Source of the DNA: a virus
Length of the DNA: 57,325 nucleotides
Reading direction: 5' to 3' (one strand)
Virus record (IMG/VR): IMGVR_UViG_3300031867_000069
The notes under the pieces were generated by a model, which did not search any database, had not been told where the DNA came from, and was given only the letters and a program-made list of their open reading frames with translations. The position numbers were made by a program, and so were the translations under genes. This document shows positions 14,396 through 45,414 of the stretch, in pieces. Within the stretch, counting starts at the first letter, position 1, and every line of letters begins with the position of its first letter.

Positions 14396-14406
14396 TTCAA
14401 AAGATC

Positions 14407-14435
14407 GAGCTCTTTAACAAGGGCTCTTTCTTTTT
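14407..14435 (+). terminator. Cassette terminator (same sequence as 14028)
   Basis: gagctctt taac aagggctc tttcttttt. Confidence 0.75.
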
Positions 14436-14464
14436 GTCGCGTAAATTACAACTTATATTATGAA
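14436..14464 (+). promoter_or_regulatory. Promoter-like motif GTCGCG-N17-TATGAA
   Basis: gtcgcgtaaattacaacttatattatgaa, directly abutting the terminator. Confidence 0.6.
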
Positions 14465-14504
14465 AAGAATCATTTTTAAATAACTTTTAATGGAGGTATC
14501 TATA

Positions 14505-14729: not shown

Positions 14730-14755
14730 GGCCTTAAACAAGGTCTCTTTCTTTT
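14728..14755 (+). terminator. Cassette terminator (GAGGCCTT-AAAC-AAGGTCTC)
   Basis: 8-bp stem with compensatory changes relative to 14028, then a T-run. It overlaps the stop codon. Confidence 0.75.
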
Positions 14756-14762
14756 GCTTTTG

Positions 14763-14791
14763 TACGCTTTAAAAACATATAATATTATGAA
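14763..14791 (+). promoter_or_regulatory. Promoter-like motif TACGCT-N17-TATGAA
   Basis: The TATGAA abuts SD AGGAGG. Confidence 0.5.
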
Positions 14792-14808
14792 AGGAGGCGA
14801 TTATATTT

Positions 14809-15099
14809 ATGAACATTGATTGGAATAAAAATATCGTTTTTAACCATGCAATAGCACTAGATAATGGAGTTGATGATATAAATCACAAACTTCTAACCTT
14901 TATAGATGATGTTATATGCTGGGGTAAAGCTTATAAATTAAAATTAATTGATTTTGAAGCGAGCTCACAGTATATAAATTTCGAATGGGAAGGAAAAAAA
15001 GAAGATGTATTTTTATTCTTCCGCCATTATAGTGTTAACTTAATAGGAAAAAATGATGATGAAACAATTAACACATTAAAATTAATAATAGCCAAATAA
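14809..15099 (+). CDS. Hypothetical protein (96 aa)
   Basis: SD AAAGGAGG. A terminator follows. Confidence 0.65.
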   Translation: MNIDWNKNIVFNHAIALDNGVDDINHKLLTFIDDVICWGKAYKLKLIDFEASSQYINFEWEGKKEDVFLFFRHYSVNLIGKNDDETINTLKLIIAK

Positions 15100-15104
15100 T
15101 GATT

Positions 15105-15133
15105 GAGGCCTTAAACAAGGTCTCTTTCTTTTT
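15105..15133 (+). terminator. Cassette terminator (GAGGCCTT-AAAC-AAGGTCTC)
   Basis: Same hairpin as 14728, then a T-run. Confidence 0.75.
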
Positions 15134-15160
15134 CGTTTATTTTACACGGTATATTATGAA
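15132..15160 (+). promoter_or_regulatory. Promoter-like motif TTCGTT-N17-TATGAA
   Basis: ttcgtttattttacacggtatattatgaa, abutting SD AGGAG. Confidence 0.5.
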
Positions 15161-15177
15161 AGGAGATGAATTATAAT

Positions 15178-15333
15178 ATGATTACTTTTACTATATTATT
15201 AATAGCACTATTAATAATCATTACAACTATAATAGTATTATTCTCATCAGGAACAATATTATTCATGTTTGTATTTTGCGATATAATAGTAGCAATAATA
15301 ATAATTGTTTTCATATGTAAAAAATTGTTCTAA
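15178..15333 (+). CDS. Very hydrophobic small membrane peptide (51 aa), below the ORF-track cutoff
   Basis: Product MITFTILLIALLIIITTIIVLFSSGTILFMFVFCDIIVAIIIIVFICKKLF. SD AAAGGAG. Confidence 0.55.
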   Translation: MITFTILLIALLIIITTIIVLFSSGTILFMFVFCDIIVAIIIIVFICKKLF

Positions 15334-15354
15334 AAGAAAAACAAATAAGAATTT

Positions 15355-15383
15355 GAGCTCTTTGACAAGGGCTCTTTCTTTTT
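15355..15383 (+). terminator. Cassette terminator (GAGCTCTT-TGAC-AAGGGCTC)
   Basis: Near-identical to 14028 and 14407. Confidence 0.75.
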
Positions 15384-15412
15384 GTCGCGTAAATTACAAC
15401 TTATATTATGAA
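15384..15412 (+). promoter_or_regulatory. Promoter-like motif GTCGCG-N17-TATGAA
   Basis: Identical to the 14436 copy. Confidence 0.6.
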
Positions 15413-15456
15413 GACTTTTGTTCTTAATACATAAAAAATAAAGGAGGATGAGATCA

Positions 15457-15705
15457 ATGAAATTATTCAACGATGCTCACGTATTTAACTTGGACGAGAA
15501 GAACGTATTACAGGTAGTTGACATTATCAACGATTCGTCAATGGATGAACTATATAATTTATCCATAAAACGATTAAATGATTCATCAACATACATGATT
15601 AAGTTCTTTACAAAAAAAGAAATATGGGATGACATATTAGCTGAATTAAACAATAATGGTTTTGAAATGATCATCAAACCGAATAACATTATGTGGTTAA
15701 GATAG
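15457..15705 (+). CDS. Hypothetical protein (82 aa)
   Basis: SD AAAGGAGG lies 9 nt before ATG 15457 (track ATG 15448 abuts the SD). Confidence 0.6.
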   Translation: MKLFNDAHVFNLDEKNVLQVVDIINDSSMDELYNLSIKRLNDSSTYMIKFFTKKEIWDDILAELNNNGFEMIIKPNNIMWLR

Positions 15706-15724
15706 GAGGATTAATAATTAGACT

Positions 15725-15752
15725 GAGACCTTAAACAAGGTCTCTTTCTTTT
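15725..15752 (+). terminator. Cassette terminator (GAGACCTT-AAAC-AAGGTCTC)
   Basis: Perfect 8-bp stem, then a T-run. Confidence 0.8.
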
Positions 15753-15779
15753 CGCTAAAATAACATGTTCCTTTATGGA
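15751..15779 (+). promoter_or_regulatory. Promoter-like motif TTCGCT-N17-TATGGA
   Basis: ttcgctaaaataacatgttcctttatgga (AACATGTTCC spacer subtype). Confidence 0.55.
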
Positions 15780-15801
15780 ATAATTAGAAAGGAGGTTTAC
15801 T

Positions 15802-15930
15802 ATGAATTTTATTAAAAATTGTTTGGTTTTAACAGCTAGCGCTGTTTCGGTAGCCATAGGCTATAAATTCGGCGAAGTTGTATGGGACCGAATTTTAAAA
15901 AATAAAATTGAAAATAAAATCAATTACTAA
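15802..15930 (+). CDS. Small membrane peptide (42 aa), below the ORF-track cutoff
   Basis: SD AAAGGAGG. Product MNFIKNCLVLTASAVSVAIGYKFGEVVWDRILKNKIENKINY. Confidence 0.55.
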   Translation: MNFIKNCLVLTASAVSVAIGYKFGEVVWDRILKNKIENKINY

Positions 15931-15943
15931 TTATTGAAACTGA

Positions 15944-15985
15944 AAGGGTTTAAGTTTAAATACTTAGACTCTTTCTTTTATTTTT
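15944..15985 (+). terminator. Rho-independent terminator
   Basis: 12-bp stem (aagggtttaagt / acttagactctt, 2 G-U pairs), then a T-run. Confidence 0.7.
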
Positions 15986-16166
15986 AATAGGCGCAATTAT
16001 AGGCACTATAATTACTACCATATTACATTTTTCACATAAAACATTTGGAGAATTGGATATCAATCACAATGGCGACGTTTGTCGATTAAAGTTAAATTCC
16101 AAAGAAATTTCGAAAAAGAATAAAAAGAAAGTTGCGCTTAAAATTATTCATATTTCGCATGAATAA
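15960..16166 (+). pseudogene. 5'-truncated remnant of a small membrane-protein gene
   Basis: The open frame (...LIGAIIGTIITTILHFSHKTFGELDINHNGDVCRLKLNSKEISKKNKKKVALKIIHISHE*) has no ATG and no SD. Its 5' end is overwritten by the terminator. Confidence 0.4.
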
Positions 16167-16182
16167 CATTTGCTATTATGGA
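16154..16182 (+). promoter_or_regulatory. Promoter-like motif TTCGCA-N17-TATGGA
   Basis: ttcgcatgaataacatttgctattatgga. It overlaps the 3' end of the remnant ORF. Confidence 0.5.
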
Positions 16183-16220
16183 ACCGAAAGGTTTTTAATA
16201 TTTTAAAGGAGGTTTTTATC

Positions 16221-16613
16221 ATGAGTATAAAGACACTATTAAACGCTGAAATTGAATCCGAGTTCAAAGAACTTGAAAAAACTCAGGTGGGCTCAGATGA
16301 GTACAAAGTATCTATCGATGGTATTAGTAAACTGATCGACAGATCTATCGAAATGTCAAAGCTCGAAGCTGATATTAAGGACAAAGAAGAGACTCGTGAA
16401 TTAGAGACTCAACTTGAACTTAAGAAACAGAAGGACGAGCATCGAAATAAAATGATAGCTAATGTCTTAACTGGTACTAGTATCATTTCTGGTATAGCTT
16501 TGACTGTTTGGGGCACTCTAAAGAGTTTGAAGTTTGAAGAAACCGGAACCATAACGACTTCGGCAGGTAGGAGTTTTATTAATGGGATTGTAAAATCTTT
16601 TACAAAACATTAA
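16221..16613 (+). CDS. Coiled-coil protein with C-terminal TM segment (130 aa)
   Basis: SD AAAGGAGG lies before ATG 16221. TM segment MIANVLTGTSIISGIALTVWGTL. Confidence 0.65.
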   Translation: MSIKTLLNAEIESEFKELEKTQVGSDEYKVSIDGISKLIDRSIEMSKLEADIKDKEETRELETQLELKKQKDEHRNKMIANVLTGTSIISGIALTVWGTLKSLKFEETGTITTSAGRSFINGIVKSFTKH

Positions 16614-16631
16614 ACAAAAAGGTTCAAGATT

Positions 16632-16665
16632 AGAGGTTATGTAAACTCATAGCCTCTTTTCTTTT
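16632..16665 (+). terminator. Rho-independent terminator
   Basis: 10-bp stem (agaggttatg / catagcctct, one G-U pair), then a T-run. Confidence 0.7.
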
Positions 16666-16695
16666 GCTAATAAACTCTTAAAGGAGACGAGACCG

Positions 16696-16827
16696 ATGAG
16701 ATCAGTAAAAAGATTTTTGAAACGTCAGTCTCCAACAGTAACAGTACGACAAATAATGTGGGCTTTAAAAATGAAGCCTATTAAAAAAGAAAAATGGGAA
16801 ACTTGTTTCGATAGGAGAGATATTTAA
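16696..16827 (+). CDS. Small basic protein (43 aa), below the ORF-track cutoff
   Basis: SD AAGGAGA. Product MRSVKRFLKRQSPTVTVRQIMWALKMKPIKKEKWETCFDRRDI. Confidence 0.45.
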   Translation: MRSVKRFLKRQSPTVTVRQIMWALKMKPIKKEKWETCFDRRDI

Positions 16828-16856
16828 TTCGCGCATTTTACAACTTGTATTATGAA
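16828..16856 (+). promoter_or_regulatory. Promoter-like motif TTCGCG-N17-TATGAA
   Basis: It starts immediately after the TAA stop. 34 nt (16825-16858) are identical to 18023-18056. Confidence 0.6.
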
Positions 16857-16892
16857 GATATTGGTTATTACCGAAAGGAGGATTGATTAGCT

Positions 16893-16958
16893 ATGCTCAT
16901 TGTTGGCCTAATATTGATAGCTATAGGATGTTTTCTAGTTGGTAAAGCATTATCTTAA
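16893..16958 (+). CDS. Tiny hydrophobic peptide (21 aa)
   Basis: SD AAAGGAGG. Product MLIVGLILIAIGCFLVGKALS. It has its own motif upstream and its own terminator. Confidence 0.4.
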   Translation: MLIVGLILIAIGCFLVGKALS

Positions 16959-16964
16959 CGAGTC

Positions 16965-16990
16965 AGGGGACCAAACCGGTCCTCTTACTT
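16965..16990 (+). terminator. Rho-independent terminator
   Basis: Stem aggggacc / ggtcctct, then a T-rich tail. Confidence 0.65.
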
Positions 16991-17019
16991 TTCGCGAATA
17001 TTGCATAGCATATTATGAA
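16991..17019 (+). promoter_or_regulatory. Promoter-like motif TTCGCG-N17-TATGAA
   Basis: ttcgcgaatattgcatagcatattatgaa, abutting SD AGGAGG. Confidence 0.6.
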
Positions 17020-17033
17020 AGGAGGAAGTTCTT

Positions 17034-17195
17034 ATGAACATTAAACTAGATGCAAGTAAACTTTTAGGTATTGGGACTATCGCTCTTGGGCTAGTATCAA
17101 CAATACTAGCCGGAGTGAAAGAAAACAACGACAAAAAAGTTTTAAAAAGCGAAATCACAGATGAAGTTCTTAAAAACTTAAAAACCAAAGAATAG
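17034..17195 (+). CDS. Small membrane protein (53 aa), below the ORF-track cutoff
   Basis: Product MNIKLDASKLLGIGTIALGLVSTILAGVKENNDKKVLKSEITDEVLKNLKTKE. Confidence 0.55.
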   Translation: MNIKLDASKLLGIGTIALGLVSTILAGVKENNDKKVLKSEITDEVLKNLKTKE

Positions 17196-17196
17196 G

Positions 17197-17225
17197 AGGG
17201 GATCAACAGATCCTCTTTTATTTTT
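17197..17225 (+). terminator. Rho-independent terminator
   Basis: Stem aggggatc / gatcctct, loop aaca, then a T-run. Confidence 0.7.
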
Positions 17226-17251
17226 GCTCATTATGAAAGGAGAAATTAAAA

Positions 17252-18025
17252 ATGAGTAAAATGAATTTATCAAGCATTGTTAAAAGCATGCGCCGTACAT
17301 TAAAAAAACACAGCCCTGAAATCCTTACTGGCATAGGTATTGCCGGTATGATTACGACCACAATATTGGCTGTTAAAGAAACGCCAAAAGCTGTTCGTTT
17401 GCTTGATGAAAGAAAAAACGAACTCGAAACTGAAAAATTGCCAGCGGTAGAAATCGTAAAAACTAGCTGGAAATGTTATATTCCAGCAGCTGTTACTTGT
17501 ACGCTATCTGCTGCTTGTTTGATTGGTGCGAGCTCCGTTAACTTAAAACGAAATGCTGCGCTAGCAACTGCTTATCAGCTTTCCGAAAAGGCTCTAACTA
17601 CTTATAAAGAAAAAGTAGTAGAAACTATCGGAGAGAAAAAAGAGCAAGTTATCAAAGATAAAGTGGCAGAGGAACATATGAAAGAAAATCCTAAGAGCCA
17701 TAACGAAGTTATTGTTACTGGCAATGGCGATGTGCTTTGCTACGATGCTTTCTCTGGACGATATTTTACATCTAGTAAAGCTAAAATTGATGATGCTGTT
17801 AATGCCATTAATAAAACAATGCTGGACGACTGGTGCGTAAGTCTGAATGACTTTTACGACGAGTTGAATCTGGATCATACTAAACTTGGCGATAGTATGG
17901 GATGGAATACTGATGGCGATTTGGTTAAAGTCTATTTTTCCAGCCAATTGACAGATGAAGGAAAGCCATGCTTGGTACTGGATTTCGATGTGGCGCCAAA
18001 CTATAACTATTACAGAATGAACTAA
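17252..18025 (+). CDS. Membrane-anchored protein, paralog of 19505..20446 (257 aa)
   Basis: The N-terminus LKKHSPEILTGIGIAGMITTTILAVKETPKA is shared with 19505 (LKKHSPEILVISGVVGTVAAGVMACKATTKA). SD AAAGGAG. Confidence 0.7.
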   Translation: MSKMNLSSIVKSMRRTLKKHSPEILTGIGIAGMITTTILAVKETPKAVRLLDERKNELETEKLPAVEIVKTSWKCYIPAAVTCTLSAACLIGASSVNLKRNAALATAYQLSEKALTTYKEKVVETIGEKKEQVIKDKVAEEHMKENPKSHNEVIVTGNGDVLCYDAFSGRYFTSSKAKIDDAVNAINKTMLDDWCVSLNDFYDELNLDHTKLGDSMGWNTDGDLVKVYFSSQLTDEGKPCLVLDFDVAPNYNYYRMN

Positions 18026-18054
18026 TTCGCGCATTTTACAACTTGTATTATGAA
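18026..18054 (+). promoter_or_regulatory. Promoter-like motif TTCGCG-N17-TATGAA
   Basis: Identical to the 16828 copy. The track ORF start 18050 is the ATG inside the motif. Confidence 0.6.
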
Positions 18055-18097
18055 GAACATTAATTGTTCGAAAATTATATTTACTGGAGGTACAAAA

Positions 18098-18352
18098 ATG
18101 GAAGAAGAAAAAATTGTTGAGATTGTAGACGAGGAAGAAACAGTGAAAACTGAAAATGATTCTAAGGCTTTGGTCACTAAGGCTAAAGACAAGTTTGTCA
18201 AGTACGGAAAGAAAGCTGGCGTTATCGCAGCTGGAATCGGTATTGGCGTTCTTGGATTTATTCTTGGATCAAAAACTAAAGATAATTCGGATGACTGTTA
18301 TGTCGAAACTACAGTCGCAGATGATTCTACCGAACACGATTCAGAAGAATAA
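18098..18352 (+). CDS. Small acidic membrane protein (84 aa)
   Basis: SD TGGAGG lies before ATG 18098. TM segment AGVIAAGIGIGVLGFILGS. Confidence 0.6.
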   Translation: MEEEKIVEIVDEEETVKTENDSKALVTKAKDKFVKYGKKAGVIAAGIGIGVLGFILGSKTKDNSDDCYVETTVADDSTEHDSEE

Positions 18353-18372
18353 TCGAAACAAATGTTCAAGGA

Positions 18373-18412
18373 GGGGGAATACCTGTAACAAGGTATTCTC
18401 TCTTTTGTTTTT
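18373..18412 (+). terminator. Rho-independent terminator ending the cassette array
   Basis: 12-bp stem (gggggaatacct / aggtattctctc, 2 G-U pairs), then ttttgttttt. Confidence 0.75.
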
Positions 18413-21891: not shown

Positions 21892-24800
21892 ATGATTGAT
21901 TTTTTAATGATTTCCACACGTAGTCCGAAACGTGGAATTATAGAAATCTATCCTAAATTCATTATTAAAGAAACTTCTGATCTAATGATTAGAGGTGGTG
22001 ATTTTTATGCAGTTTGGATAGACGAATTAGGTTTATGGTCCACTAGAGAACAAGATGCTTTACAACTTATAGACCACGAATTAAAAAAATACACTGAAGA
22101 AAACAAAAGTAAATTCGATGGACTTGTAAAGACTCTTTATATGTGGGATGCAGAATCAGGCATGATTGACCGATGGCATAAATATTGTCAAAAGCAAATG
22201 AGAGACAATTATGTCATGCTTGATGAAAAACTTATATTCTCTAATACTAAGACCACTAAAAAAGACTACGCTAGTAAAAGATTAAGCTATCCTCTTGAAT
22301 CGGGCGACTTCCCCGCATATGAAAAGATAATGTCTACTTTATATTCTCCAGAAGAACGTCATAAAATAGAATGGGCTATAGGTTCTATTGTTACTGGAGA
22401 TAGTAAAACTATACAAAAATTCATGGTTCTTTACGGAGCTGCTGGTACAGGTAAATCAACAATATTGAATATTATCCAACAATTATTTGAAGGATATTAT
22501 TCGGTATTCGACGCCAAAGCTTTAGGATCATCTACCAATGCCTTTGCATTGGAAGCATTTAAAAATAATCCTTTAGTAGGCATTCAACATGACGGTGACT
22601 TATCAAGAATCGAAGATAATACTAGGCTTAATAGTTTGGTTTCTCACGAACTTATGACGGTTAATGAGAAATTTAAGAGCACTTATTCCAATAGGTTTAA
22701 GTGCTTTCTTTTTATGGGCACTAATAAACCTGTAAAAATTACAGACGGTAAATCTGGTTTACTTCGAAGATTAATTGATGTTACTCCATCTGGTAATAAA
22801 CTTAGTTTTCGAGAATACAACACTGCTATAAAGCAGGTGCCATTTGAGCTGGGGTTTATTGCCAACCATTGCAAAGAAGTATATTTGAGCGATCCAGCTA
22901 AGTACGACGATTATATTCCTATTTCAATGATGGGAGCTTCGAACGATTTCTATAACTTTATTATAGATTCATACCATATATTCAAGAAGGAAAATGGAAC
23001 TACTCTAAAGCAAGCATGGGCTTTGTATAACACATATTGTGAAGAGGCTAGAGTTCCATATCCATTCTCGAAAAGGAGTTTTAAAGAGGAACTAAAAAAC
23101 TACTTCTGGGATTTCAAAGAAAGATTTATATCCGAAGATGGTTCCAGAGTACGAAGTTATTATGTTGGTTTTAGAACCGATAAATTTGAAGATGAAAAAA
23201 ATCCGGAGGGCAAAAATGATAAAAACAAAGTAAATCTTATCAGTTTCAAAGAACAGCCATCTATATTTGATACTTATTGTGCGGATTGCATTGCTCAATA
23301 TTCAACTCCGAATGAAATTCCGAACCAACCTTGGGATAAAGTAACAACTAAACTTTCAGACATCAACACATCAAAACTTCACTTCGTTAAAGTGCCTTTG
23401 AATCATATTGTCATTGACTTTGATATTAAAGGACCAGATGGTAAAAAGAGTTTTGAACGAAACTTAGAAGCGGCTAGTAAATGGCCTGCTACTTATGCTG
23501 AACTAAGTAAGTCTGGAGCAGGAATTCATCTTCATTATATTTATAGTGGAGATCCAACGAAATTAAGTAGTGTGTATGATGAGAACATTGAAGTTAAAGT
23601 ATTCAAAGGTAAATCTTCTCTTAGAAGAAGATTAACTAAATGCAATGACTTGTCAATAACTACTATTACGTCTGGATTACCTTTGAAAGGAGATACCAAA
23701 ATGATAAACAGGGAGGCTGTTAAAACCGAAAAAGGTATTCGTACTTTAATCAAGCGAAACCTCAATAAGGAATACCATCCTGGGACAAAACCAAGCATCG
23801 ACTTCATTTATAAGATATTAGAAGATGCTTACAATCAAGGACTTAAATATGATGTGTCCGATATGAAAAATGCAGTAATTGCTTTTGCCGCTGGCAGTAC
23901 ACATAAAGCCGATTATTGTTTGAGGCTTGTTGGCAAGATGAAATTTAAATCAGAAGAACAGTCCAAAGTTAAGGATGAAGACAAGACTTTAGTATTCTAT
24001 GATATTGAAGTCTTTCCTAATCTATTCTTAGTCAACTGGAAAGCAGCCGGCAAAGGAAAACCTGTTGTGAGAATGATTAATCCTTCTTCAGAAGAAATTG
24101 AAGACCTATTAAAGTTCAGACTTATAGGTTTCAATTGTCGTAGATACGATAATCATATTTTGTATGCTCGTTTAATGGGTTATACAAATGAACAGCTATA
24201 TAATCTATCACAAAAGATTATATCTGGTGATCGTAATGCATTCTTTGGCGAAGCTTACAATCTATCCTATACGGATGTTTATGACTTTTGTGCGAAAAAG
24301 CAATCCCTTAAAAAATGGGAAATCGAACTAGGTATTCATCATAAAGAATTAGGATTGCCTTGGGATCAACCTGTTCCAGAAGATATGTGGATTAAGGTGG
24401 CAGAATATTGCGATAATGATGTTATTGCTACTGAAGCCGTATTCGATACTAGACAGTCAGACTTTGTTGCTAGAGAAGTTCTAGCTGATGTGGCAGGAAT
24501 GACTGTTAACGATACAACTAACAGTCTTACAACTAGAATTATATTTGGTAAGAATAAGAAACCTCAATCTTCATTTAACTATAGAGACATGGGTGACATG
24601 TCTATACCTCATCAAAAATTCATAATAACAAAGGATATGGATTTATATCCTAATGATGAATTTGATGATTTTACAATATTTGATGAAGAAAATCGTCCTT
24701 TATTTCCGGGTTATAAATATGAAGCCGGAAAATCAACATATCGCGGTGAGGAAATCGGCGAAGGAGGTTATGTATATGCCGAACCAGGCATGTACAAAAA

Positions 24801-30003: not shown

Positions 30004-30041
30004 AAGGTGTCTGAAACATGGCACCTTATTCTTTTATTTTT
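30004..30041 (+). terminator. Rho-independent terminator
   Basis: 8-bp stem (aaggtgtc / ggcacctt), then attcttttattttt. Confidence 0.65.
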
Positions 30042-30056
30042 GAAAGGAGAATTTAC

Positions 30057-30932
30057 ATGAGCAAAAAATATGAATTCACGGGAGAAACTAAAACGATGCA
30101 GGATGGCAATATTTTGCATAGAATCATAGCTTGTAAAACATTCGGAAATGTAAAATCCGGAGAACTCGGCGGATGGATCGAAAACGAAAATAATTTGAGT
30201 CATGAAGGAAATGCTTGGGTTTCTGAAAATGCTAGTGTTTATGGAAATGCTAAGGTTTCTGGAAATGCTGAGATTTCTGGAGATGCTAGAGTTTATGGTG
30301 ATGCTGAGATTTTTGGAGATGCTGAGATTTCTGGAGATTCTTGGGTTTCTGGAAATGCTAAGGTTTCTGGAAATGCTGAGATTTCTGGTGATTCTTGGGT
30401 TTTTGGAAATGCTGAGATTTCTGGAAATGCTGAGATTTCTGGAAATGCTAGTGTTTATGGAGATTCTGGGGTTTATGGTGATGCTAAGATTTCTGGAGAT
30501 GCTAAGATTTCTGGAGATGCTGAGATTTCTGGTGATTCTTGGGTTTATGGTGATGCTAGGGTTTATGGTTATTCTTGGGTTTATGGAAATGCTAGGGTTT
30601 ATGGTGATGCTAGGGTTTCTGGAAATGCTATAGTTTATGGAGATGCTAGAGTTTTTGGAAACGCTTGGGTTTTTGGAAATGCTGAGATTTCTGGAAATGC
30701 TGAGATTTCTGGAGATGCTGATTATGCAACAATCAAAGGATTTGGAACTAACTTTAGAAATACTACTTTCTTTAAGTGTTCCGACGGATCTATAAAGGTC
30801 AATTGCGGTTGTTTCTATGGAACTTTAAAAGAGTTTAGAAAACAGGTAAATAAAACTAGATCTGGAAAAATCAGAAAAGAATATCTTATGATTGCAGATC
30901 TAATGGAAATGCATTTTTCAAATAAAACTTAG
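30057..30932 (+). CDS. Hexapeptide-repeat (left-handed beta-helix type) protein of unknown function (291 aa)
   Basis: SD AAAGGAGAA lies before ATG 30057. There are 28 consecutive G-[ND]-[AS]-x-[VI]-x hexads. The C-terminal domain contains a GCFYGTLKEF motif. Confidence 0.75.
   Translation: MSKKYEFTGETKTMQDGNILHRIIACKTFGNVKSGELGGWIENENNLSHEGNAWVSENASVYGNAKVSGNAEISGDARVYGDAEIFGDAEISGDSWVSGNAKVSGNAEISGDSWVFGNAEISGNAEISGNASVYGDSGVYGDAKISGDAKISGDAEISGDSWVYGDARVYGYSWVYGNARVYGDARVSGNAIVYGDARVFGNAWVFGNAEISGNAEISGDADYATIKGFGTNFRNTTFFKCSDGSIKVNCGCFYGTLKEFRKQVNKTRSGKIRKEYLMIADLMEMHFSNKT
30207..30719 (+). repeat. 18-bp tandem repeat array (about 28.5 units, consensus ggaaatgctgagatttct)
   Basis: Read directly from the sequence. 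It encodes the hexapeptide repeats. Confidence 0.9.
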
Positions 30933-31305: not shown

Positions 31306-31561
31306 ATGATTAAAATTGAAAACGCGGAAGTTATGGGTTGGGAGGCTGCTATTCGTGGAATGCGAAATCCAATGAATTCTTGGGATAGGAGTGATAGCGA
31401 ACGAAAATACGAATCATGGCACGATATGTCTGGAGGAGAGTTTACCATTGGCCCAAATGATCATGACTTGATGATGCGGTTGGCAGCGGGTGGACCGGTT
31501 CATGCGAAGTATCGTAGGATGATTACGGTATATGTTGATATTACTGCTCCTCTATATTGGT
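31306..31561 (+). CDS. ThyX-like (flavin-dependent thymidylate synthase fold) protein, exon 1
   Basis: The N-terminal 85 aa end in ...VDITAPLYW, which corresponds to ThyX ...[10 protein letters not shown]. The apparent TAG stop is the first bases of the intron. The exon ends on U31561. Confidence 0.7.
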
Positions 31562-31607
31562 AGTTCTTTCTGCCAATGAAACACTTTTCCTAGTTATCGC
31601 TAGGGGT

Positions 31608-31636
31608 CACGCGTAAATAACATGCTCCTTTACGAA
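31608..31636 (+). promoter_or_regulatory. Promoter-like motif CACGCG-N17-TACGAA (inside the intron)
   Basis: A variant copy. Its CACGC can pair with GCGUG at 32471-75, closing the insertion. Confidence 0.45.
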
Positions 31637-31650
31637 AGGAGGAATTAAGT

Positions 31651-31839
31651 ATGATATTTAGAAGAAACAAACTTACAGTTGACGAAATTGAAGCATATGT
31701 ACAAAATCATTTAGATCTATATAATAGCCAAATAAAAATATTAGAAGATGATAATTATACATGTGAATGTTTAAAAGCACAAAGAGTAACTTGTAAAGAG
31801 ATACTTAGATTCATTAAAGTTAGAAAGGCTCAGCAATAA
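31651..31839 (+). CDS. Intron-nested small protein (62 aa)
   Basis: SD AAAGGAGG. The stop lies inside the terminator stem. Confidence 0.55.
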   Translation: MIFRRNKLTVDEIEAYVQNHLDLYNSQIKILEDDNYTCECLKAQRVTCKEILRFIKVRKAQQ

Positions 31840-31859
31840 CGCTGGGTCTTTTCTCTTTT
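31827..31859 (+). terminator. Rho-independent terminator (copy 1 of a 35-nt exact repeat)
   Basis: Stem ggctcagc / gctgggtc, then ttttctctttt. 31826-31860 is identical to 32428-32462. Confidence 0.7.
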
Positions 31860-31879
31860 ATGAAAGGAAGGTGATATTT

Positions 31880-32149
31880 ATGACCAATACCGAAAAACAA
31901 ATAGAAAATATGGGGTATGAAATTCGTGTTAGTGATATGCTTTGCAATTATGTTGTTTATGAGAACAAAAAAGAAGATCAAGAAATAATCTTGGAATGGG
32001 ATGATGAAGATCAATATTGTATGTTGTTTTCACAAACAATATCGAGAGAAAAGGATTGGCTCGGACATACACGACAAATGCCTCAAGCATTAACTATTCG
32101 TGAATTGGAAATATTTACAGCTAGACTTAAAGAATTGAGAGAGGCCTAA
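31880..32149 (+). CDS. Intron-nested small protein (89 aa)
   Basis: TATGAAAGGAAGG lies before ATG 31880. Confidence 0.55.
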   Translation: MTNTEKQIENMGYEIRVSDMLCNYVVYENKKEDQEIILEWDDEDQYCMLFSQTISREKDWLGHTRQMPQALTIRELEIFTARLKELREA

Positions 32150-32180
32150 TTAATGGTCTCTTTCTCTTTTTTATTTTTTT
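32140..32180 (+). terminator. Rho-independent terminator
   Basis: Stem agaggcc / ggtctct, then a long T-run. Confidence 0.7.
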
Positions 32181-32191
32181 GAAATCTAAAA

Positions 32192-32220
32192 TTCGCGAAA
32201 TACGCACTTCCTTTTATGAA
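32192..32220 (+). promoter_or_regulatory. Promoter-like motif TTCGCG-N17-TATGAA (inside the intron)
   Basis: ttcgcgaaatacgcacttccttttatgaa, abutting SD AGGAG. Confidence 0.55.
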
Positions 32221-32234
32221 AGGAGTGAATTATT

Positions 32235-32402
32235 ATGTTACAATCACACGAAGTTAAAAATTATTTACATTCATTAAATGCGGTAAAATATCATTATGAT
32301 ACTGATGAATTTAACAGACGAGTTAATTTCGTTTGTAAAATATGTAGTTATCATGGATATTTGTCGTATGGAAAGATAAGAGAAATATTCGAAAATTGTT
32401 AA
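32235..32402 (+). CDS. Intron-nested small protein (55 aa), below the ORF-track cutoff
   Basis: Product MLQSHEVKNYLHSLNAVKYHYDTDEFNRRVNFVCKICSYHGYLSYGKIREIFENC. Confidence 0.5.
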   Translation: MLQSHEVKNYLHSLNAVKYHYDTDEFNRRVNFVCKICSYHGYLSYGKIREIFENC

Positions 32403-32428
32403 ACATTGTAATGGATTATAGAGCGAGA

Positions 32429-32461
32429 GGCTCAGCAATAACGCTGGGTCTTTTCTCTTTT
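32429..32461 (+). terminator. Rho-independent terminator (copy 2 of the 35-nt repeat)
   Basis: Identical to 31827-31859. Confidence 0.7.
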
Positions 32462-32528
32462 ATATTTAAAGCGTGGCTAACGGGGAACCACCCATTGGAA
32501 TCCCGTGGGAAACATTTCAAAAATATAA

Positions 32529-32557
32529 TACGCGAAAAATACATAGCGTATTATGAG
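32529..32557 (+). promoter_or_regulatory. Promoter-like motif TACGCG-N17-TATGAG with no ORF downstream
   Basis: It lies between the P4-P6 and P7 halves of the intron core. No SD or credible ORF follows in the next ~300 nt. Confidence 0.4.
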
Positions 32558-32834
32558 AAATAGACTTGTGAAGACAAATGACACATGAATTTGCGGTTTG
32601 TATATTTTATACAAATTGAGAGAAGTGAGAAACCTGATATCGGATCATAGGAAAATGAGACTATGTGAACATAGCAAGTTCTATTCTTTTTTATTTTTGA
32701 AACGAACCTGTAGAGGCTATCCCCTATGCCTTCTGGGCGGGGGAGTAGGGCTACTATTGATACGTAGCTGGATTTTAGGAAACGAAGTCCATGAAAACCG
32801 AAATGGTGTCCTATTGTTTTGAATTTGTGTGTGA

Positions 32835-33421
32835 AAAAAATTATGGTGGACTTATATTTATAATAACGAACATGATTCGTATATCTATAAAGGTCCTTAT
32901 AGTATTGATTTGATGTATCAAAAACGTGATAAATTCGATGGGAATATTTATGAGCATAATTTAAGAACAAAGAAAGATATAAAGGCTGCTAGTGAAGATA
33001 CCTTAATAGAGGAGTTTGATACCTTTTATAAGAAAAACAAAAATGATATAGATAATCTTTTACGTCCTGGTTTTGATAATTTAATGAATACTCCGTATGC
33101 TAAATTAACAAAGGACGGCGTTACATATAAAGATGTGGCTGGAAATTCAAGAAATCTGCAAAACAATATAAGTATGCGGAAAAATTTGTAAATAGATTAA
33201 AGGAACAGAAATATTCCGCTATCGAAGATATGAATAATAAAGGTTCGTATTATAATTCTATAAGTCCTGTTGTCATTCTTGATGGCAAACAATATTTATC
33301 AGAAACCGGAATATCTTCTTTACCAGCAAGTCATGTTTATGCATACGGTAATTACGTTATGAATGTATTAGGTTACAAAAACGAGCAAGCCGGTTATCGT
33401 AATATCATAAAACAATTTTAA
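32835..33421 (+). pseudogene. Frame-disrupted intronic ORF (possible decayed homing-endonuclease gene)
   Basis: Two overlapping frames (32835/32913..33191 and 33131..33421) sit between the P7 5' and 3' strands. There is no SD. I see no LAGLIDADG, GIY-YIG or HNH motif. Confidence 0.3.
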
Positions 33422-33461
33422 ATAAACACACAAAACAATAGTAAAAGATAGTCCATTAATG

Positions 33462-33886
33462 GGAAAGAATTTGATACTTATAAGGTTGGTACTGTTGCAA
33501 ACTCATGCTCAACGATGCACAAGATTCATGAGAAGGAGTTTATGATGGAGGATTTTAGTTGTGAAAAGCTTATAAACTCAGCATGCATGGAAATTCAAGA
33601 ACAGCATATTCGTATAAGCCCGATACAAGCATTGGCAACGACCATTGAGTGCTTGAATTCCTATCGGGATTTATATTTGCAAACCAAAGATAAAAAATAT
33701 TGGTGGCAGATGATCCAGCTTCTTCCAAGCTCATATAACCAGAAGAGAACTGTAATGCTGAATTACGAGGTTCTTGCTGGCATTTATATTTCTAGGAAGG
33801 ACCATAAGCTCGACGAATGGAAGGAGTTCTGTAAGTGGATAGAAAGCCTTCCATATTCTGAGTTAATTACTGGAAAGGAGAACTAA
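33462..33886 (+). CDS. ThyX-like protein, exon 2
   Basis: The frame is open from 33452. (W)KEFDTYKVGTVANSCSTMH... continues the ThyX alignment, and ...LLPSSYNQKRTVMLNYEVLAGIYISRKDHKLDEW corresponds to ThyX [34 protein letters not shown]. Confidence 0.7.
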
Positions 33887-36129: not shown

Positions 36130-36196
36130 TATTTTAATTTATTTAAGAAAAAAGTATATATATTTAAAAAGAATTGACAAAAAAAAACGGGTTTTT

Positions 36197-36302
36197 GGCC
36201 ACAGGCATATTTTAGGGTCGAATAAGGTTGAAAATGTGCATTTGGCCACAGGCATATTTTAGGGTCGAATAAGGTTGAAAATGTGCATTTGGCTATATTT
36301 TT
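36197..36302. repeat. Perfect 47-bp tandem repeat, 2 full units plus a partial third
   Basis: ggccacaggcatattttagggtcgaataaggttgaaaatgtgcattt occurs at 36197-36243 and 36244-36290, followed by ggctatattttt. Confidence 0.9.
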
Positions 36303-37253: not shown

Positions 37254-40088
37254 ATGAACAATATCATAAAAGATATGGATGAACATGTGCTAATGCATTA
37301 CGGAATGCCTAAACGTTCTGGACGATATCCTTGGGGAAGTGGTGATAATCCATATCAGCGTACAGGCGATTTTATGGGTAGAGTTGACGAGCTAAGAAAA
37401 CAGAATTTTACTTATACTGATGAAAAAGGAAAAGTTTGGACAGGCGATACTGCTATTGCCAAATCTATGGGTTTGTCAACAACTCAATTTAGAACCGAAT
37501 ATTCTATTGCTAAAAACGAACGTAGACTCTATCAAGTAAATACTGCTAAAGCGTTGCAGAAAGATGGACTCGGTGCTACAGAAATCGGTAGAAAAATGGG
37601 TATACCAGAATCATCAGTTAGATCCTTATTGAATGCAAAATCCGAAACAAAAATGAATCAGGCTAAAGAAACAGCTAAATTCATAAAAGAGCAGATTGAT
37701 AAAAAAGGAATGATTGATGTTGGTACTGGTGTTGAAAGAGAACTAAACATATCTAAGGAAAAACTTAATCAGGCCTTATATTTACTCGAAAGAGAAGGCT
37801 ATCCTATATATAAAGGCGGCATTCCCCAAGTAACAAACATAGGTAATCAAACAAATCAAAAGATTATTTGTAAACCTGGTACAGAACATAAAGAAATTTA
37901 TGATTTTGACAAGGTTCATGCTCTTAATGAGGATAACTATATTTCTAGAGATGACGGTAAAACTTTCGAAAAGAAATTCCATTATCCAGAAAGTATGGAT
38001 TCAAAACGTCTTATGATTAGATACAAAGAGGACGGCGGCATCGATAAAGATGGTGTTGCAGAAATTAGACCAGGTGTTGACGATCTTTCACTTGGCGAAT
38101 CTCGATATTCTCAGGTTCGTATAATGGTTGATGGTAAAAAATACATAAAAGGTATGGCTGTATATGGCGATCCTAAAGATTTTCCTAAAGGTGTTGACGT
38201 TATATTTAACACTAACAAATCAAAGTCTGTATCTAAACTAGATGTTCTTAAAGATATTAAGAGCGATCCAGATAATCCATTTGGTTCTTTAATTAAAGAC
38301 GCTACACAAGGCGGTCAATATTGGTATACGGATTCTAAGACCGGAAAGAAGAAGCTTGGACTTATTAATAAGACAAGAGAAGAAGGCGATTGGGATGATT
38401 GGAAAGATGCTCTGCCTTCACAGTTCTTAGCTAAGCAGCCTATACAAATGATTAAGAAACAATTAAAGTTAGCAGTTGCTGATAAGGAAGCAGAATATGC
38501 TGATATTATGTCTATTAATAATCCTACTATTAAGAAATATTATCTTAATAAGTTTGCGGATGAATGTGATTCGACGGCTGTACATTTAAAAGCAGCCGCA
38601 TTACCAGGACAAAAGTATCACGTTATTATTCCTAATAATACGCTTAAAGAGAATGAAGTGTATGCGCCGGGCTATGCTTCAGGCACAAAGCTTGCTTTAA
38701 TAAGATATCCACATGGTGGAACATTTGAGATTCCTATATGTACAGTAAACAATAAGAATGCATTAGGTAAAAAACTTATAGGTACAACTCCTATAGATGC
38801 TGTATGTATTAATTCTAGAGTTGCTGAAAGATTATCAGGAGCGGATTTTGATGGCGATACGGTTATGTGCATTCCAACCCATGATCGTCAAGGAAAAGTT
38901 AAGATTACTTCTACTCCTCCTTTGAAAGGTCTAGAAGGTTTTGACCCAAAGATGGCCTATCCAGAACGTCCAGGTATGCAGTATATGAAAAATCCTAAGA
39001 CTGGAAGTGATAGCACTCCAGTGCAAATGGGAATGATTTCGAATCTTATAACCGATATGACTTTACTTGGCGCTACCTCTGATGAATTGGCTGCTGCCGT
39101 ACGTCACAGTATGGTAGTTATTGATGCTGGTAAGCACAAGCTGGACTATAAGCAGAGCGAGATAGATAACAACATAGCCGCTCTAAAGAAAAAGTATCAA
39201 GTGGGTGGCGCTTCTACTTTAATGTCTAGGGCTAAAGGTGAGTATGATGTACCCAAAAGGCAGGGTAATCCCCGTGTCAATTTAAAGGGCAAAACATATT
39301 ATGACCCTACCCGTCCCGAGGGAGCCCTAGTATATAAGACGGCAGACGACGCCAAATGGATACAAACAAAAGTCAATAAACGTACTGGAGAAGTAAAAAA
39401 AGTTGAGAGGATTCGTACTCAGAAGAGTACCAATATGGCAGAGACGGATGACGCATATACCCTAGTGTCTAAATTTAACACCCCTAAGGAGAGAGCCTAT
39501 GCCGACTATGCCAATAAAATGAAATCAATGGCTAACCAGGCCCGTATAGAAGCATCTAATTCGGGCAAAATAGCCTATTCAAGATTGGCAAAAGCAGAAT
39601 ATCAAAAAGAAGTAGATTCTTTGAATGCAAAATTAAACAAAGCTTTACTTAATTCTCCTAGAGAACGTCAAGCTCAACGTATGTCTAACGCTGAAATGAA
39701 TATAAAAAAGAGAGCCTATTATGATGAAACGGGCGCAAAGATGAAAACTAAGGATATAAAGAAAGCCAGTCAGCAAGCAATATCAAAGTATCGTGATGAA
39801 GTAGGCTCTGTATCTAGAAGAAACCGTTCTATTACTATAGATGATAGAGAATGGGAAGCTATTCAAAAGGGTGCAATAAGCGAAAGCGTGCTTAATAAGA
39901 TACTGAATAATAGTGATCCTGACAAACTAAGAGAAAGAGCAACACCTAAAACTTCTAAAGGTTTAAACACTGCTAAAGTAAACAGAATCAAAGCTTTGTC
40001 TGCTTCTAATTACACATTAGAACAAATCGCTAACAAACTTGGTATTTCAACTTCAACAGTTGCTAAGTATTTGAAAGGAGGAAATTAA
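37254..40088 (+). CDS. YonO / RdRP-like two-barrel single-subunit RNA polymerase candidate with flanking HTH domains (944 aa)
   Basis: The core motifs are ALIRYPHGGTFEIP (R484), then LSGADFDGDTVMCIPTHD (D531-D535, nt 38844-38858), then GMISNLITD...AAAVRHSMVVIDAGKHKLDYK. The HTH segments are GATEIGRKMGIPESSVRSLL near the N-terminus and YTLEQIANKLGISTSTVAKYLKGG at the C-terminus. Confidence 0.6.
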   Translation: MNNIIKDMDEHVLMHYGMPKRSGRYPWGSGDNPYQRTGDFMGRVDELRKQNFTYTDEKGKVWTGDTAIAKSMGLSTTQFRTEYSIAKNERRLYQVNTAKALQKDGLGATEIGRKMGIPESSVRSLLNAKSETKMNQAKETAKFIKEQIDKKGMIDVGTGVERELNISKEKLNQALYLLEREGYPIYKGGIPQVTNIGNQTNQKIICKPGTEHKEIYDFDKVHALNEDNYISRDDGKTFEKKFHYPESMDSKRLMIRYKEDGGIDKDGVAEIRPGVDDLSLGESRYSQVRIMVDGKKYIKGMAVYGDPKDFPKGVDVIFNTNKSKSVSKLDVLKDIKSDPDNPFGSLIKDATQGGQYWYTDSKTGKKKLGLINKTREEGDWDDWKDALPSQFLAKQPIQMIKKQLKLAVADKEAEYADIMSINNPTIKKYYLNKFADECDSTAVHLKAAALPGQKYHVIIPNNTLKENEVYAPGYASGTKLALIRYPHGGTFEIPICTVNNKNALGKKLIGTTPIDAVCINSRVAERLSGADFDGDTVMCIPTHDRQGKVKITSTPPLKGLEGFDPKMAYPERPGMQYMKNPKTGSDSTPVQMGMISNLITDMTLLGATSDELAAAVRHSMVVIDAGKHKLDYKQSEIDNNIAALKKKYQVGGASTLMSRAKGEYDVPKRQGNPRVNLKGKTYYDPTRPEGALVYKTADDAKWIQTKVNKRTGEVKKVERIRTQKSTNMAETDDAYTLVSKFNTPKERAYADYANKMKSMANQARIEASNSGKIAYSRLAKAEYQKEVDSLNAKLNKALLNSPRERQAQRMSNAEMNIKKRAYYDETGAKMKTKDIKKASQQAISKYRDEVGSVSRRNRSITIDDREWEAIQKGAISESVLNKILNNSDPDKLRERATPKTSKGLNTAKVNRIKALSASNYTLEQIANKLGISTSTVAKYLKGGN

Positions 40089-42359: not shown

Positions 42360-42374
42360 AGGACGGTGAGATTA

Positions 42375-43046
42375 ATGAATGATGAACTTTATCATCACGG
42401 TATCAAAGGTATGAAATGGGGCGTTCGTAGATATCAGAATAAAGACGGTAGTTTGACTCCTAGAGGAAAAAAGAAATATGGAACTAGAGAGAATTTTGAA
42501 AGGCACTTGGCCTCTAAAAAATTTAAAAAGAGTTCTCATAAACTTTCTGGTATAGAGAAGAAAAAGCCTATAAAGTCGGCTAAGGATATGACCGATGATG
42601 AATTAAAAAGTAGGATCAATCGTCTTCAAATGGAAAGGCAATATCTTGATTTAAATAAACAGATTTCTTCTTTAACTCCTAAAAAAGTGTCGAAAGGAGA
42701 ACAGTTCATCAAAGCAATCGGTAAAGACGTTATAGCTCCAGTTGCCAAAAATATTGGCAAACAATATTTGGAAAAAGCATTAAAGAAAAATCTAGGATTG
42801 GATATAAAAGATACTTTGGAAGGTCTAGAAAAAGAAGCAAAGAAATTAAGACTAAAAAAAGAAATAAATGATCTAAAGAATCCTAAAAAAGACTATAAAG
42901 ATGAATTTGTTAAGAATTGGAACAAACATAAAAGATGGAAAAAAGCAGTTGAAGAATATGAAAATGAAGCTGCTGATGATTTTGTAAATAGTAATGCTGA
43001 TTCCGGAAAGCAATATGTAGAAACAGCTTTGGCTATACGTAAATAG
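42375..43046 (+). CDS. Lys-rich protein with N-terminal LYHHGIKGMKWGVRR motif (223 aa)
   Basis: Shares a 53-bp exact DNA segment with 44839..45414. It sits immediately upstream of terL. Confidence 0.65.
   Translation: MNDELYHHGIKGMKWGVRRYQNKDGSLTPRGKKKYGTRENFERHLASKKFKKSSHKLSGIEKKKPIKSAKDMTDDELKSRINRLQMERQYLDLNKQISSLTPKKVSKGEQFIKAIGKDVIAPVAKNIGKQYLEKALKKNLGLDIKDTLEGLEKEAKKLRLKKEINDLKNPKKDYKDEFVKNWNKHKRWKKAVEEYENEAADDFVNSNADSGKQYVETALAIRK
42379..42431 (+). repeat. 53-bp exact direct repeat, copy 1
   Basis: atgatgaactttatcatcacggtatcaaaggtatgaaatggggcgttcgtaga, identical to 44867-44919. Confidence 0.95.
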
Positions 43047-44838: not shown

Positions 44839-45414
44839 ATGACTAATTACATTATAAAAACAAAGGATGATGAACTTTATCATCACGGTATCAAAGGTAT
44901 GAAATGGGGCGTTCGTAGACAACAGAAAAAACAGGCAAAGAAAGATTTTGCAAACATGCCAAGTAAGAAGAAAGGCCCAGTTGATATTGGTAATTCCGCA
45001 GCACGAAGTTATTTTAAGTCGCAAAATCTTATAAGAAAGGCTGATAAAACTAGAAGTTTTGCCAAGTATAGGAAATTAAATAAAAAAGCCCATCGTTTGC
45101 AAAAAATAGCAGATAGAAAAACAGGTCAATTAAACGAGGCGCAAGTTAAAGCCGGTCGCTATAGAATCGCTAGAAATAGAAACTATAGAAGAACAGCTTT
45201 ATCCGCTGTTATAGGAACAGCAGCTGGAGTAGCTGCTATGGGACTTGGTGCAGCAGCATTGGGCGTTCCTATTGCTGGTGCGGCATACATTACAAGTAGA
45301 TATGCTAGTGGTGGTAGACGATATCGAAGAGAACAGATTAGTTATAAGAAGTTTGCAACAAAAGAAAGCAAGCCGATAAAGAAAAATAAATCTAAATCTA
45401 AATCTAGTAAATAA
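44839..45414 (+). CDS. Basic protein with N-terminal LYHHGIKGMKWGVRR motif and C-terminal Gly/Ala-rich hydrophobic segment (191 aa)
   Basis: SD AAGGAGG. Hydrophobic segment ALSAVIGTAAGVAAMGLGAAALGVPIAGAAYI. It lies between terL and the portal gene. Confidence 0.65.
   Translation: MTNYIIKTKDDELYHHGIKGMKWGVRRQQKKQAKKDFANMPSKKKGPVDIGNSAARSYFKSQNLIRKADKTRSFAKYRKLNKKAHRLQKIADRKTGQLNEAQVKAGRYRIARNRNYRRTALSAVIGTAAGVAAMGLGAAALGVPIAGAAYITSRYASGGRRYRREQISYKKFATKESKPIKKNKSKSKSSK
44867..44919 (+). repeat. 53-bp exact direct repeat, copy 2
   Basis: Identical to 42379-42431. Confidence 0.95.

Follow-up and report, generated by a model that had tools for sequence, protein, structure and literature searches.

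The window considered here, a viral DNA stretch of 57,325 nucleotides (nt) from IMG/VR (record IMGVR_UViG_3300031867_000069), contains a ThyX-like gene that, judged from the sequence, is interrupted by a td-like (IA2-type) group I intron of 1900 nt with an intact core and predicted splicing. A hairpin loop of this intron, located immediately 5′ of J3/4-P4, is filled by an insertion of 858 nt (31613–32470) with three small open reading frames (ORFs) and putative expression signals. We consider it probable, at roughly 65%, that the intron is mobile and carries self-insulated, moron-like early-gene cassettes in its loops, and that the ThyX-like protein is expressed by transcriptional read-through of the cassette terminators.

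The split gene, its ribozyme and stem B

In a profile search, the ORFs at 31306–31563 and 33515–33886 match opposite ends of a single PHROG family, phrog_6721, and the phiCTP1 homologue in this family gives a weak Pfam match to Thy1/ThyX. The reading frame of exon 1 ends at a TAG codon that straddles the 5′ splice site. Alignment with uninterrupted homologues sets the junction at ...APLYW/WKEFDTYK, which defines the intron as 31562–33461, and the predicted ligated junction of 28 nt, CTCTATATTGGT/GGAAAGAATTTGATAC, is found unchanged in five homologues from other phages that lack the intron. When metagenome contigs were searched with the exon junction, all matches were to intron-less genes from other phages with 69–90% identity, and neither spliced RNA nor an intron-minus allele of the window phage was found among them. 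As sequence evidence, these matches support the position of the junction and carry no information on splicing.

A full model of the ribozyme, comprising P1, P3, hairpin A, stem B, P4, P5, P6, P7, P7.1, P7.2a/b and P8, was tested on 21 distinct homologous introns, the long loops of which were excised before alignment. In this set, 97.9% of the cells are paired (87–100% for the different helices), with compensatory changes in 21 of the 57 pairs. None of 500 shuffles equals the observed pairing, and slid partners are paired in 34–47% of cases. The P7.1 and P7.2 elements that are characteristic of subgroup IA are present: P7.1 is 87% paired, P7.2a is invariant, and P7.2b is 95% paired with compensatory changes in four of seven pairs. 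The junction at which P1 forms had been set independently, by protein alignment. At the 3′ splice site, the intron ends with G33461 and the P10 pairing can be formed; the J8/7-P7′ block AAAAGAUAGUCC is found at 33443–33454. By covariation, the P3/P7 pseudoknot as well as the conserved P3–P8 and P4–P6 core are present, and the sequence blocks of P4–P6 and P7 resemble those of td. More divergent members of the family retain the P3 pairing in the form of AUGG/CCAU, CACUCU/AGAGUG and CUCCU/AGGAG. Over about 100 nt of the P7.1–P7.2 region (32705–32808), the core is approximately 80% identical to introns of Lak megaphages and Enterococcus phage EF1. The smallest intron in the family is 308 nt (L109; loci are numbered with the prefix L), and a megablast search of the region against phage records gave no match.

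The original prediction proposed that CACGC and GCGUG at the flanks of the insertion could pair and extrude it as a loop, and covariation bears this out. The pentamers (31608–31612 and 32471–32475) extend to a stem of seven base pairs, GTCACGC/GCGTGGC, referred to here as stem B. In 33 distinct introns, including those in other host genes, stem B is paired to 96.5%, with compensatory changes in five of the seven pairs, no match among 500 shuffles, and only 25–49% pairing in slid registers. The 5′ strand was picked as the complementary segment right after hairpin A, and its position is fixed in every short-loop copy. All cargo-bearing copies share the sequence GUCACGC...GCGUGGC. An insertion of about 860 nt had been placed between P2 and the P3–P4 core; the size holds, but covariation shows the insertion to lie between the 5′ strand of P3 and J3/4-P4.

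Cassettes in the stem B loop and in related phages

The G+C content of the cassettes is 0.295, compared with 0.349 in the surroundings. Three ORFs of 62, 89 and 55 amino acids (aa), each preceded by a Shine-Dalgarno (SD) sequence, had been recognized in the insertion and are supported by homology, with 37 homologue clusters for ORF1 (66–100% identity), 67 for ORF2, and one homologue with 58% identity for ORF3. For ORF1, a pattern search in IMG/VR gave no relatives, and the clusters were retrieved by a larger protein search. No family was found for ORF1, ORF2 or ORF3 in Pfam or PHROGs. The three terminators that had been proposed are also found at their positions by sequence criteria, each with the GC-containing stem and U-tract of an intrinsic terminator and with folding energies between −16.0 and −20.5 kcal/mol; for none of them was an equally good fold obtained in 200 shuffles. 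The direct repeat shared by T1 and T3 is exact as claimed, but has a length of 36 nt rather than 35 nt (31826–31861 and 32428–32463).

A promoter-like motif, TTCGCG-N6-ACA-N5-TATTATGAA, is present in the window in 16 copies with at most three mismatches, all on the plus strand, compared with 0.08 copies expected by chance. By inspection, the copies are intergenic, and often follow right after a terminator of one family and right before an SD sequence. Two full motifs and one truncated motif had been assigned to the insertion. The copy at 32192 is good and the truncated copy is present, but the copy at 31608 is weak, with five mismatches. Its equivalents in related phages are good copies, e.g., CACGCT...TATAATGAA. 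Hairpins of about −8 kcal/mol, predicted to mask the SD sequence, are located ahead of ORF1 and ORF3, and the anti-SD arm is situated between the ACA block and the −10-like block of the motif. The anti-SD arm of ORF1 accompanies its cassette also outside the intron.

The original prediction called for a comparison with introns that lack the insertion, and such introns are common. A 24-nt core word identified 68 viral loci, about 37 of which represent the same intron in the same codon of the same gene. In about 20 homologous introns at this gene site, the loop of stem B measures 3–16 nt, as opposed to 858 nt in the window. Other copies have intermediate or alternative contents. In L142, a loop of 15 nt joins the 5′ half of the promoter to the tail of the terminator, in the manner of a scar, and in L130 and L133 a loop of 115 nt contains promoter and terminator and no ORF. 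A single cassette of 270–325 nt is found at 11 loci, which together represent at least six unrelated ORF families, and three genes are present in L099 and the window.

The cassettes are not restricted to the stem B loop. The ORF1 cassette, with its anti-SD arm and the same terminator, occurs in three contexts: alone in the stem B loop (L158), in the P8 loop of the same intron (L156 and L157), and just 3′ of exon 2, outside the intron (L154 and L155). The upstream hexamer of the motif is CACGCG in the first context, AACGCG in the second and TTCGCG in the third. CACGCG is thus seen only where the hexamer is part of the stem, which directly supports the earlier suggestion that the first motif copy is constrained by the pairing. 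In L095, L138, L102 and L121, homologues of ORF2 with 75% identity are located outside the intron, 4–6 kilobases (kb) farther downstream, and the one copy inspected (L095) has its own promoter-like motif and terminator. In another gut phage, L083 (MT835485.1, 3190–3850), an orphan intron fragment consists of stem B (GCCGCG/CGCGGC) around a cassette, followed by P4–P6, a P6-loop promoter and the homologue of ORF3. The fragment lacks P1, P3, hairpin A and the P7–P9 half, and no ThyX-like exon was found in the flanks examined (3.5 kb upstream and 2.4 kb downstream), which suggests that cassette arrays can bring intron pieces to new places.

Relatives share 56–70% identity with the window in the exons, where synonymous divergence (dS) is saturated, and 90–100% in the ribozyme core. 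Similarly, the cargo of the stem B loop is 91–100% identical between phages with exons that are 58–78% identical. Since intron and cargo are far more alike than the exons, both have spread horizontally and are much younger than the genes that hold them. Identity at third codon positions shows a weak rise near the junction when plotted against the distance from the intron, but P1/P10 and a conserved protein motif confound this trend.

Based on these observations, we propose that the cargo represents the standard early-gene modules of this phage group, each composed of a promoter-like motif, a small ORF with its SD sequence masked by an anti-SD arm, and an intrinsic terminator. Recombination at the shared promoter and terminator ends would probably shuttle the modules between intergenic sites and the loops of stem B, P6 and P8. 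Such an insertion could be tolerated since the covarying stem would close the loop and extrude the cargo, the anti-SD hairpin would bar ribosomes from the cargo ORFs in read-through pre-mRNA, as in the control of I-TevI in phage T4, and the terminator would confine the cassette transcripts. The three-gene array most likely started as a lone ORF1 cassette of the kind seen in L158, to which ORF2 and ORF3 would have been added at the terminator, and this addition would have left the 36-nt repeat. For the ThyX-like protein to be made, a polymerase would have to read through T1–T3, after which stem B could form and the intron be spliced.

Insertions in the P6 and P8 loops and other features

Besides stem B, the intron has two further insertion sites, located in the loops of P6 and P8 (Table 1). 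The promoter-like motif at 32529 is a good copy and lies just outside the insertion that was described originally. The P6-loop insert is 94–96% identical to P6-loop segments in L087, L091, L095, L105, L107 and L138. The ORF-less unit does not fold better than shuffles (z = −1.25), and the U-rich tail that ends the insert is unconvincing as a terminator (−3.4 kcal/mol). This unit could represent a gene for a small RNA, or else a cassette that has been emptied. In relatives, the P6 loop can instead hold an ORF of 234–247 aa with a Zn-ribbon and a DUF2726-like domain.

Two ORFs of 93 and 63 aa, out of frame, lie in the P8 loop, where a polymorphic 1-nt indel at position 32834, seen in L159, alters the frame. 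Because its left boundary is the same as that of insertions with DUF7211 genes in relatives, the P8-loop insertion is probably a decayed cargo gene. The P8 loop of other relatives holds an ORF for an HNH/I-HmuI-like endonuclease (L093 and L141), and many small cassettes are found in the P6 and P8 loops of relatives as well. Elsewhere in the window, a 70-nt repeat with 93% identity (42374–42443 and 44862–44931) encodes a DUF7211-type N-terminus (...YHHGIKGMKWGVR...) that starts two different genes; the same type of N-terminus heads cargo genes in the P8 loop of relatives.

Table 1. Positions of exons, ribozyme elements and cargo features in the window
Feature	Position	Strand	Description and basis
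Exon 1, ThyX-like gene (phrog_6721)	31306–31561	+	PHROG profile positions 7–82 of 218; aligned with uninterrupted homologues
P1	31556–31577	+	Exon ATTGGU (31556–31561) with guide GCCAAU (31572–31577), U·G at splice site; sequence, 98% paired in 21 related introns
P10	31564–31571, 33462–33469	+	P1 loop UUCUUUCU with first 8 nt of exon 2, GGAAAGAA; read from sequence
P3, 5′ strand	31581–31584	+	ACAC, pairs with GUGU (32806–32809); 100% paired, compensatory changes in 2 of 4 pairs
Hairpin A (earlier termed P2)	31589–31604	+	CCUAG-UUAUCG-CUAGG; 100% paired, 4 of 5 pairs compensatory
Stem B, 5′ strand	31606–31612	+	GUCACGC, overlaps upstream hexamer of first promoter-like motif; covariation
Promoter-like motif, copy 1 (degenerate)	31608–31636	+	CACGCG for TTCGCG, CTTTAC for TATTAT; looser repeat search only
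Hairpin predicted to mask ORF1 SD in read-through RNA	31625–31641	+	CUCCUUU-ACG-AAAGGAG; −8.0 kcal/mol, z = −2.7
ORF1, 62 aa	31651–31839	+	ATG start, SD-led, conserved small protein
Terminator T1 (putative)	31823–31862	+	Stem 31823–31852 and U-tract, contains repeat copy 1; −16.7 kcal/mol, z = −5.1
Truncated promoter-like motif	31856–31864	+	3′ block TTTTATGAA only, ahead of ORF2 SD; sequence
ORF2, 89 aa	31880–32149	+	ATG start, SD-led, conserved small protein
Terminator T2 (putative)	32137–32180	+	Stem 32137–32164 and U-tract, phage-wide family GAGnCCT...GGTCTCTTTCT; −16.0 kcal/mol, z = −4.2
Promoter-like motif, copy 2	32192–32220	+	Two mismatches; SD-sequestering hairpin at 32205–32227; motif search and folding
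ORF3, 55 aa	32235–32402	+	ATG start, SD-led; homologue in L083 behind orphan intron fragment
Terminator T3 (putative)	32425–32464	+	Stem 32425–32454 and U-tract, contains repeat copy 2; −20.5 kcal/mol, z = −5.6
Stem B, 3′ strand	32471–32477	+	GCGUGGC, followed directly by J3/4 (UAA) and P4; covariation
J3/4, P4, P5, P4′, P6, P6a 5′ strand	32478–32524	+	P6a 5′ strand CAUUUCAAAAAU; conserved in Enterococcus phage EF1 intron, 99–100% paired
P6-loop insertion	32525–32692	+	Closed by CAUUUCAAAAAU/AUUUUUGAAACG; promoter-like motif 32529–32557, ~130 nt without ORF, U-rich tail; motif search
P6a/P6 3′ strands, J6/7, P7 5′ strand, P7.1, P7.2, P3 3′ strand	32693–32809	+	P7 5′ strand GGCUA (32715–32719); ~80% identity with Lak phage and EF1 introns, covariation
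P8	32810–33441	+	5′ strand 32810–32821, 3′ strand 33431–33441; compact P8 hairpins in relatives, 100% paired, 2 of 4 pairs compensatory
P8-loop insertion, ~609 nt	32822–33430	+	Decayed ORFs; closed by P8
J8/7, P7 3′ strand, tail	33442–33461	+	AAAAGA-UAGUC, short tail, terminal G 33461; sequence and covariation
Exon 2, ThyX-like gene	33462–33886	+	PHROG profile positions 101–216 of 218; homologue alignment

Units similar to those in the intron are found elsewhere in the window. A tandem array at 13770–18410 has about ten units of terminator, promoter-like motif and small ORF with a spacing of 250–380 nt, all on the plus strand. The units of this array are the same type of module as the intron cargo, and the region is probably an early or host-takeover region. 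A terminator-like hairpin with U-tract (22676–22715, −15.4 kcal/mol) lies within the ORF of a primase-polymerase of 1316 aa, and may be there by chance or act as an internal attenuator. Just 5′ of the split gene, a protein of 304 aa (ORF 30018–30932) contains about 24 tandem hexapeptide repeats of 18 nt (30144–30809) of the form GNAEIS/GDAKVS.

Proposed terminator read-through, alternative explanations and known systems

The original prediction pointed out that terminators within an intron would leave the two exons on different transcripts unless they are read through, and the positions of the signals make this a real problem, since no transcript from an internal promoter could include the ribozyme's 3′ half unless it passed a terminator. 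Transcripts from 32192 would meet T3 (32425–32464) before reaching the 3′ strand of stem B at 32471, and the motif at 32529 is downstream of P4–P6. Read-through appears to be needed elsewhere in the genome too: when the list of motif copies is inspected together with the sequence, the genes past a terminator near 30030 have no motif promoter. A possible source of this activity is a protein of 944 aa (37254–40088, plus strand) that matches phrog_4291, annotated as “RNA-dependent RNA polymerase”, with 1197 bits. Residues 529–535 form a GADFDGD motif, a helix-turn-helix at the C-terminus resembles region 4 of sigma-70, and homologues are found in phages of Arthrobacter, Gordonia, Streptomyces, Lactococcus and Faecalibacterium. 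A sequence search of the PDB with this protein gave no match. From its motifs, we regard the protein as a candidate YonO-like single-chain RNA polymerase, which might supply the terminator read-through; leaky termination or an antiterminator would be other possible sources. A copy of the promoter-like motif is located upstream of its gene, at 36316, and just 5′ of this copy are two tandem 47-nt repeats with 91% identity (36184–36277).

Several observations weigh against the interpretation given here. The three serial terminators should strongly attenuate exon 2 if transcription is carried out by the host RNA polymerase. If TATTAT is a −10 element of sigma-70 type, transcripts would start inside the adjacent SD sequence. 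The original description of three promoter/terminator-bounded cassettes holds for the terminators, but ORF2 has no promoter of its own and the first motif copy is poor, so that three autonomous cassettes, as read from the sequence, overstates the case for the window phage. Intact exons provide only weak evidence for working splicing because the intron is a recent arrival. A homing endonuclease domain was not found in any ORF of the window, and none is intact in this intron copy. The ribozyme departs from the canonical order P1-P2-P3-J3/4-P4, as the 5′ strand of P3 follows right after P1, and hairpins A and B are placed between P3 and J3/4. Finally, Rfam did not find a group I intron in the window at the gathering score or at E ≤ 10, nor in the compact homologue of 308 nt, and gave nothing useful for the relatives L083–L085, L109, L137 and L152. 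Another compact relative, L140, is matched by Intron_gpI (RF00028) with 42.4 bits compared with the gathering score of 50 (E = 1.6e-9), and the non-canonical order P1-P3-A-B-J3/4 probably explains why RF00028 misses this intron family.

Some of these points would be accommodated if the motif and the hairpins are not transcription signals, such that the 1.9-kb intron is a single RNA, either the pre-mRNA or the excised intron serves as messenger for the ORFs, and the boundaries of the units are sites of processing, stability or recombination. The −10-like block that abuts the SD sequence, the degenerate copy at 31608 and the promoterless ORF2 would fit such a scheme, as would the fact that excised group I introns can be stable. 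We nevertheless find it unlikely, because the motif copies are far more numerous than expected, all on one strand, intergenic, and in many cases placed between a terminator and an SD sequence, and because the hairpins combine a stem and a U-tract in the way that complete intrinsic terminators do. Furthermore, anti-SD arms make sense only if there are two classes of transcripts. It is more improbable still that, in this lineage, a dead intron interrupts a ThyX-like pseudogene, with cassettes that have piled up in a decaying, dispensable region. The three strong terminators between the exons, the lack of an intact homing endonuclease, the decayed ORFs in the P8 loop and the silence of Rfam on the window would all be in keeping with this. 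However, all core helices are intact and covarying, P1, P10 and the terminal G are intact, and the cargo is confined to stem-closed loops and never interrupts core strands. At all of the 30-plus loci, 12 of which have cargo, the spliced reading frames are open, and the ratio of nonsynonymous to synonymous substitutions (dN/dS) is about 0.13 among the cargo-bearing copies. In addition, one base pair of the stem that closes P6a is restored by the naturally occurring variant C32703T.

Group I introns that are split in peripheral loops can trans-splice, and an exon-1 transcript terminated at T1 would contain P1 and the 5′ strands of P3 and stem B. The exons could then reside on separate transcripts, with the ribozyme halves assembling via stem B. 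This arrangement seems very improbable, as the relatives with short loops are plainly cis-splicing, and it offers no escape from the terminators: no internal promoter is placed to give the 3′ half without crossing T3, and read-through is required regardless. An assembly artefact, i.e., a chimeric join at repeats that put the cassettes into the intron, was considered because repeats, among them the exact 36-nt repeat, lie at the flanks of the block and within it. This was rejected since the 2581-nt arrangement of gene and intron is found with 100%, 100% and 99.9% identity in contigs from three other samples (two data sources), and since related phages have other cassettes at exactly the same nucleotide position; a misassembly can therefore be practically disregarded.

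Unlike the intron cargo of the window, the cargo of phage T4 introns consists of homing endonuclease genes such as I-TevI, for which promoters within the intron and sequestration of the SD sequence by a hairpin are described; the SD sequence is masked in read-through RNA and free in promoter-initiated RNA (PMC2988022). Promoters in introns and masked SD sequences are thus already known for homing endonuclease genes. The td, nrdB and nrdD (sunY) introns of T4 resemble the window intron in having a phage IA-type ribozyme with P7.1/P7.2 in a gene of nucleotide metabolism, a long ORF-bearing loop extruded by a closing stem, an intron-internal promoter and an SD sequence masked by a hairpin (both predicted for the window). 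In the window, three unrelated small genes are present in place of a homing endonuclease gene, and a predicted intrinsic terminator ends each unit. The window family also differs by the use of three loops, by cargo that varies among close relatives and is found outside introns as well, and by the position of the 5′ strand of P3 ahead of the 5′ hairpins.

Enterococcus phage EF1, within its PolIII-alpha gene, and the Lak megaphages of Prevotella (L085, Lak-A1, at about 2500–2680) have introns of the same ribozyme family with matching P4–P6 and stem B, in host genes that differ from that of the window. In the EF1 intron (L084, 1686–2665), the P6 loop contains a GIY-YIG-type ORF, recognized by eye from its motif, and the loop of stem B is just 27 nt. 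Judged from these sequences, the ribozyme family has a very wide host range.

The morons of lambdoid phages are reportedly, after Juhala and Hendrix, autonomous promoter-gene-terminator units located between phage genes. As for morons, the units in the window are self-contained, with a promoter-like motif, one small gene and a terminator recognizable by sequence, have a lower G+C content, and are present, absent or relocated among relatives. In contrast to morons, they are located in ribozyme loops inside a gene, the upstream element of the promoter-like motif doubles as a strand of an RNA helix, and the genes are probably expressed early in lytic growth, rather than from a prophage. A looser analogy can be drawn to integron cassette arrays, which also hold interchangeable single-gene units on a fixed platform with contents that vary among relatives. 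The window has no integrase, attC or attI, each unit has its own predicted promoter and terminator, and an RNA loop in a mobile intron serves as the platform. In the literature searched, we found no report of non-endonuclease cassettes or of intrinsic terminators within a group I intron, nor of one cassette that occurs in different loops and outside an intron.

Group I introns are not known to carry any gene beyond the homing endonuclease that mobilizes them. In the window family, the loops instead hold interchangeable non-endonuclease genes with what appear to be their own expression signals, and the same cargo is common to phages in which the host gene has diverged strongly. Since the family is missed by Rfam, such split genes are probably widely mis-annotated in gut viromes. 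The intron also presents a problem of coupling between transcription and splicing, as a self-splicing pre-mRNA would have to be made across at least three intrinsic terminators. As a tentative generalization, to which we assign clearly less confidence than to the interpretation above, the intron family could serve as a cargo vector with loops B, P6 and P8 as docking sites for self-insulated cassettes, such that accessory early genes hitch-hike between diverged phages, with the corollary that read-through gates the ligation of the exons. If so, this gating, perhaps by way of the YonO-like polymerase, would make the intron a temporal switch, the loops would be natural “safe-harbour” insertion sites set by RNA structure, and the intron would constitute a new route of gene flow between phages.

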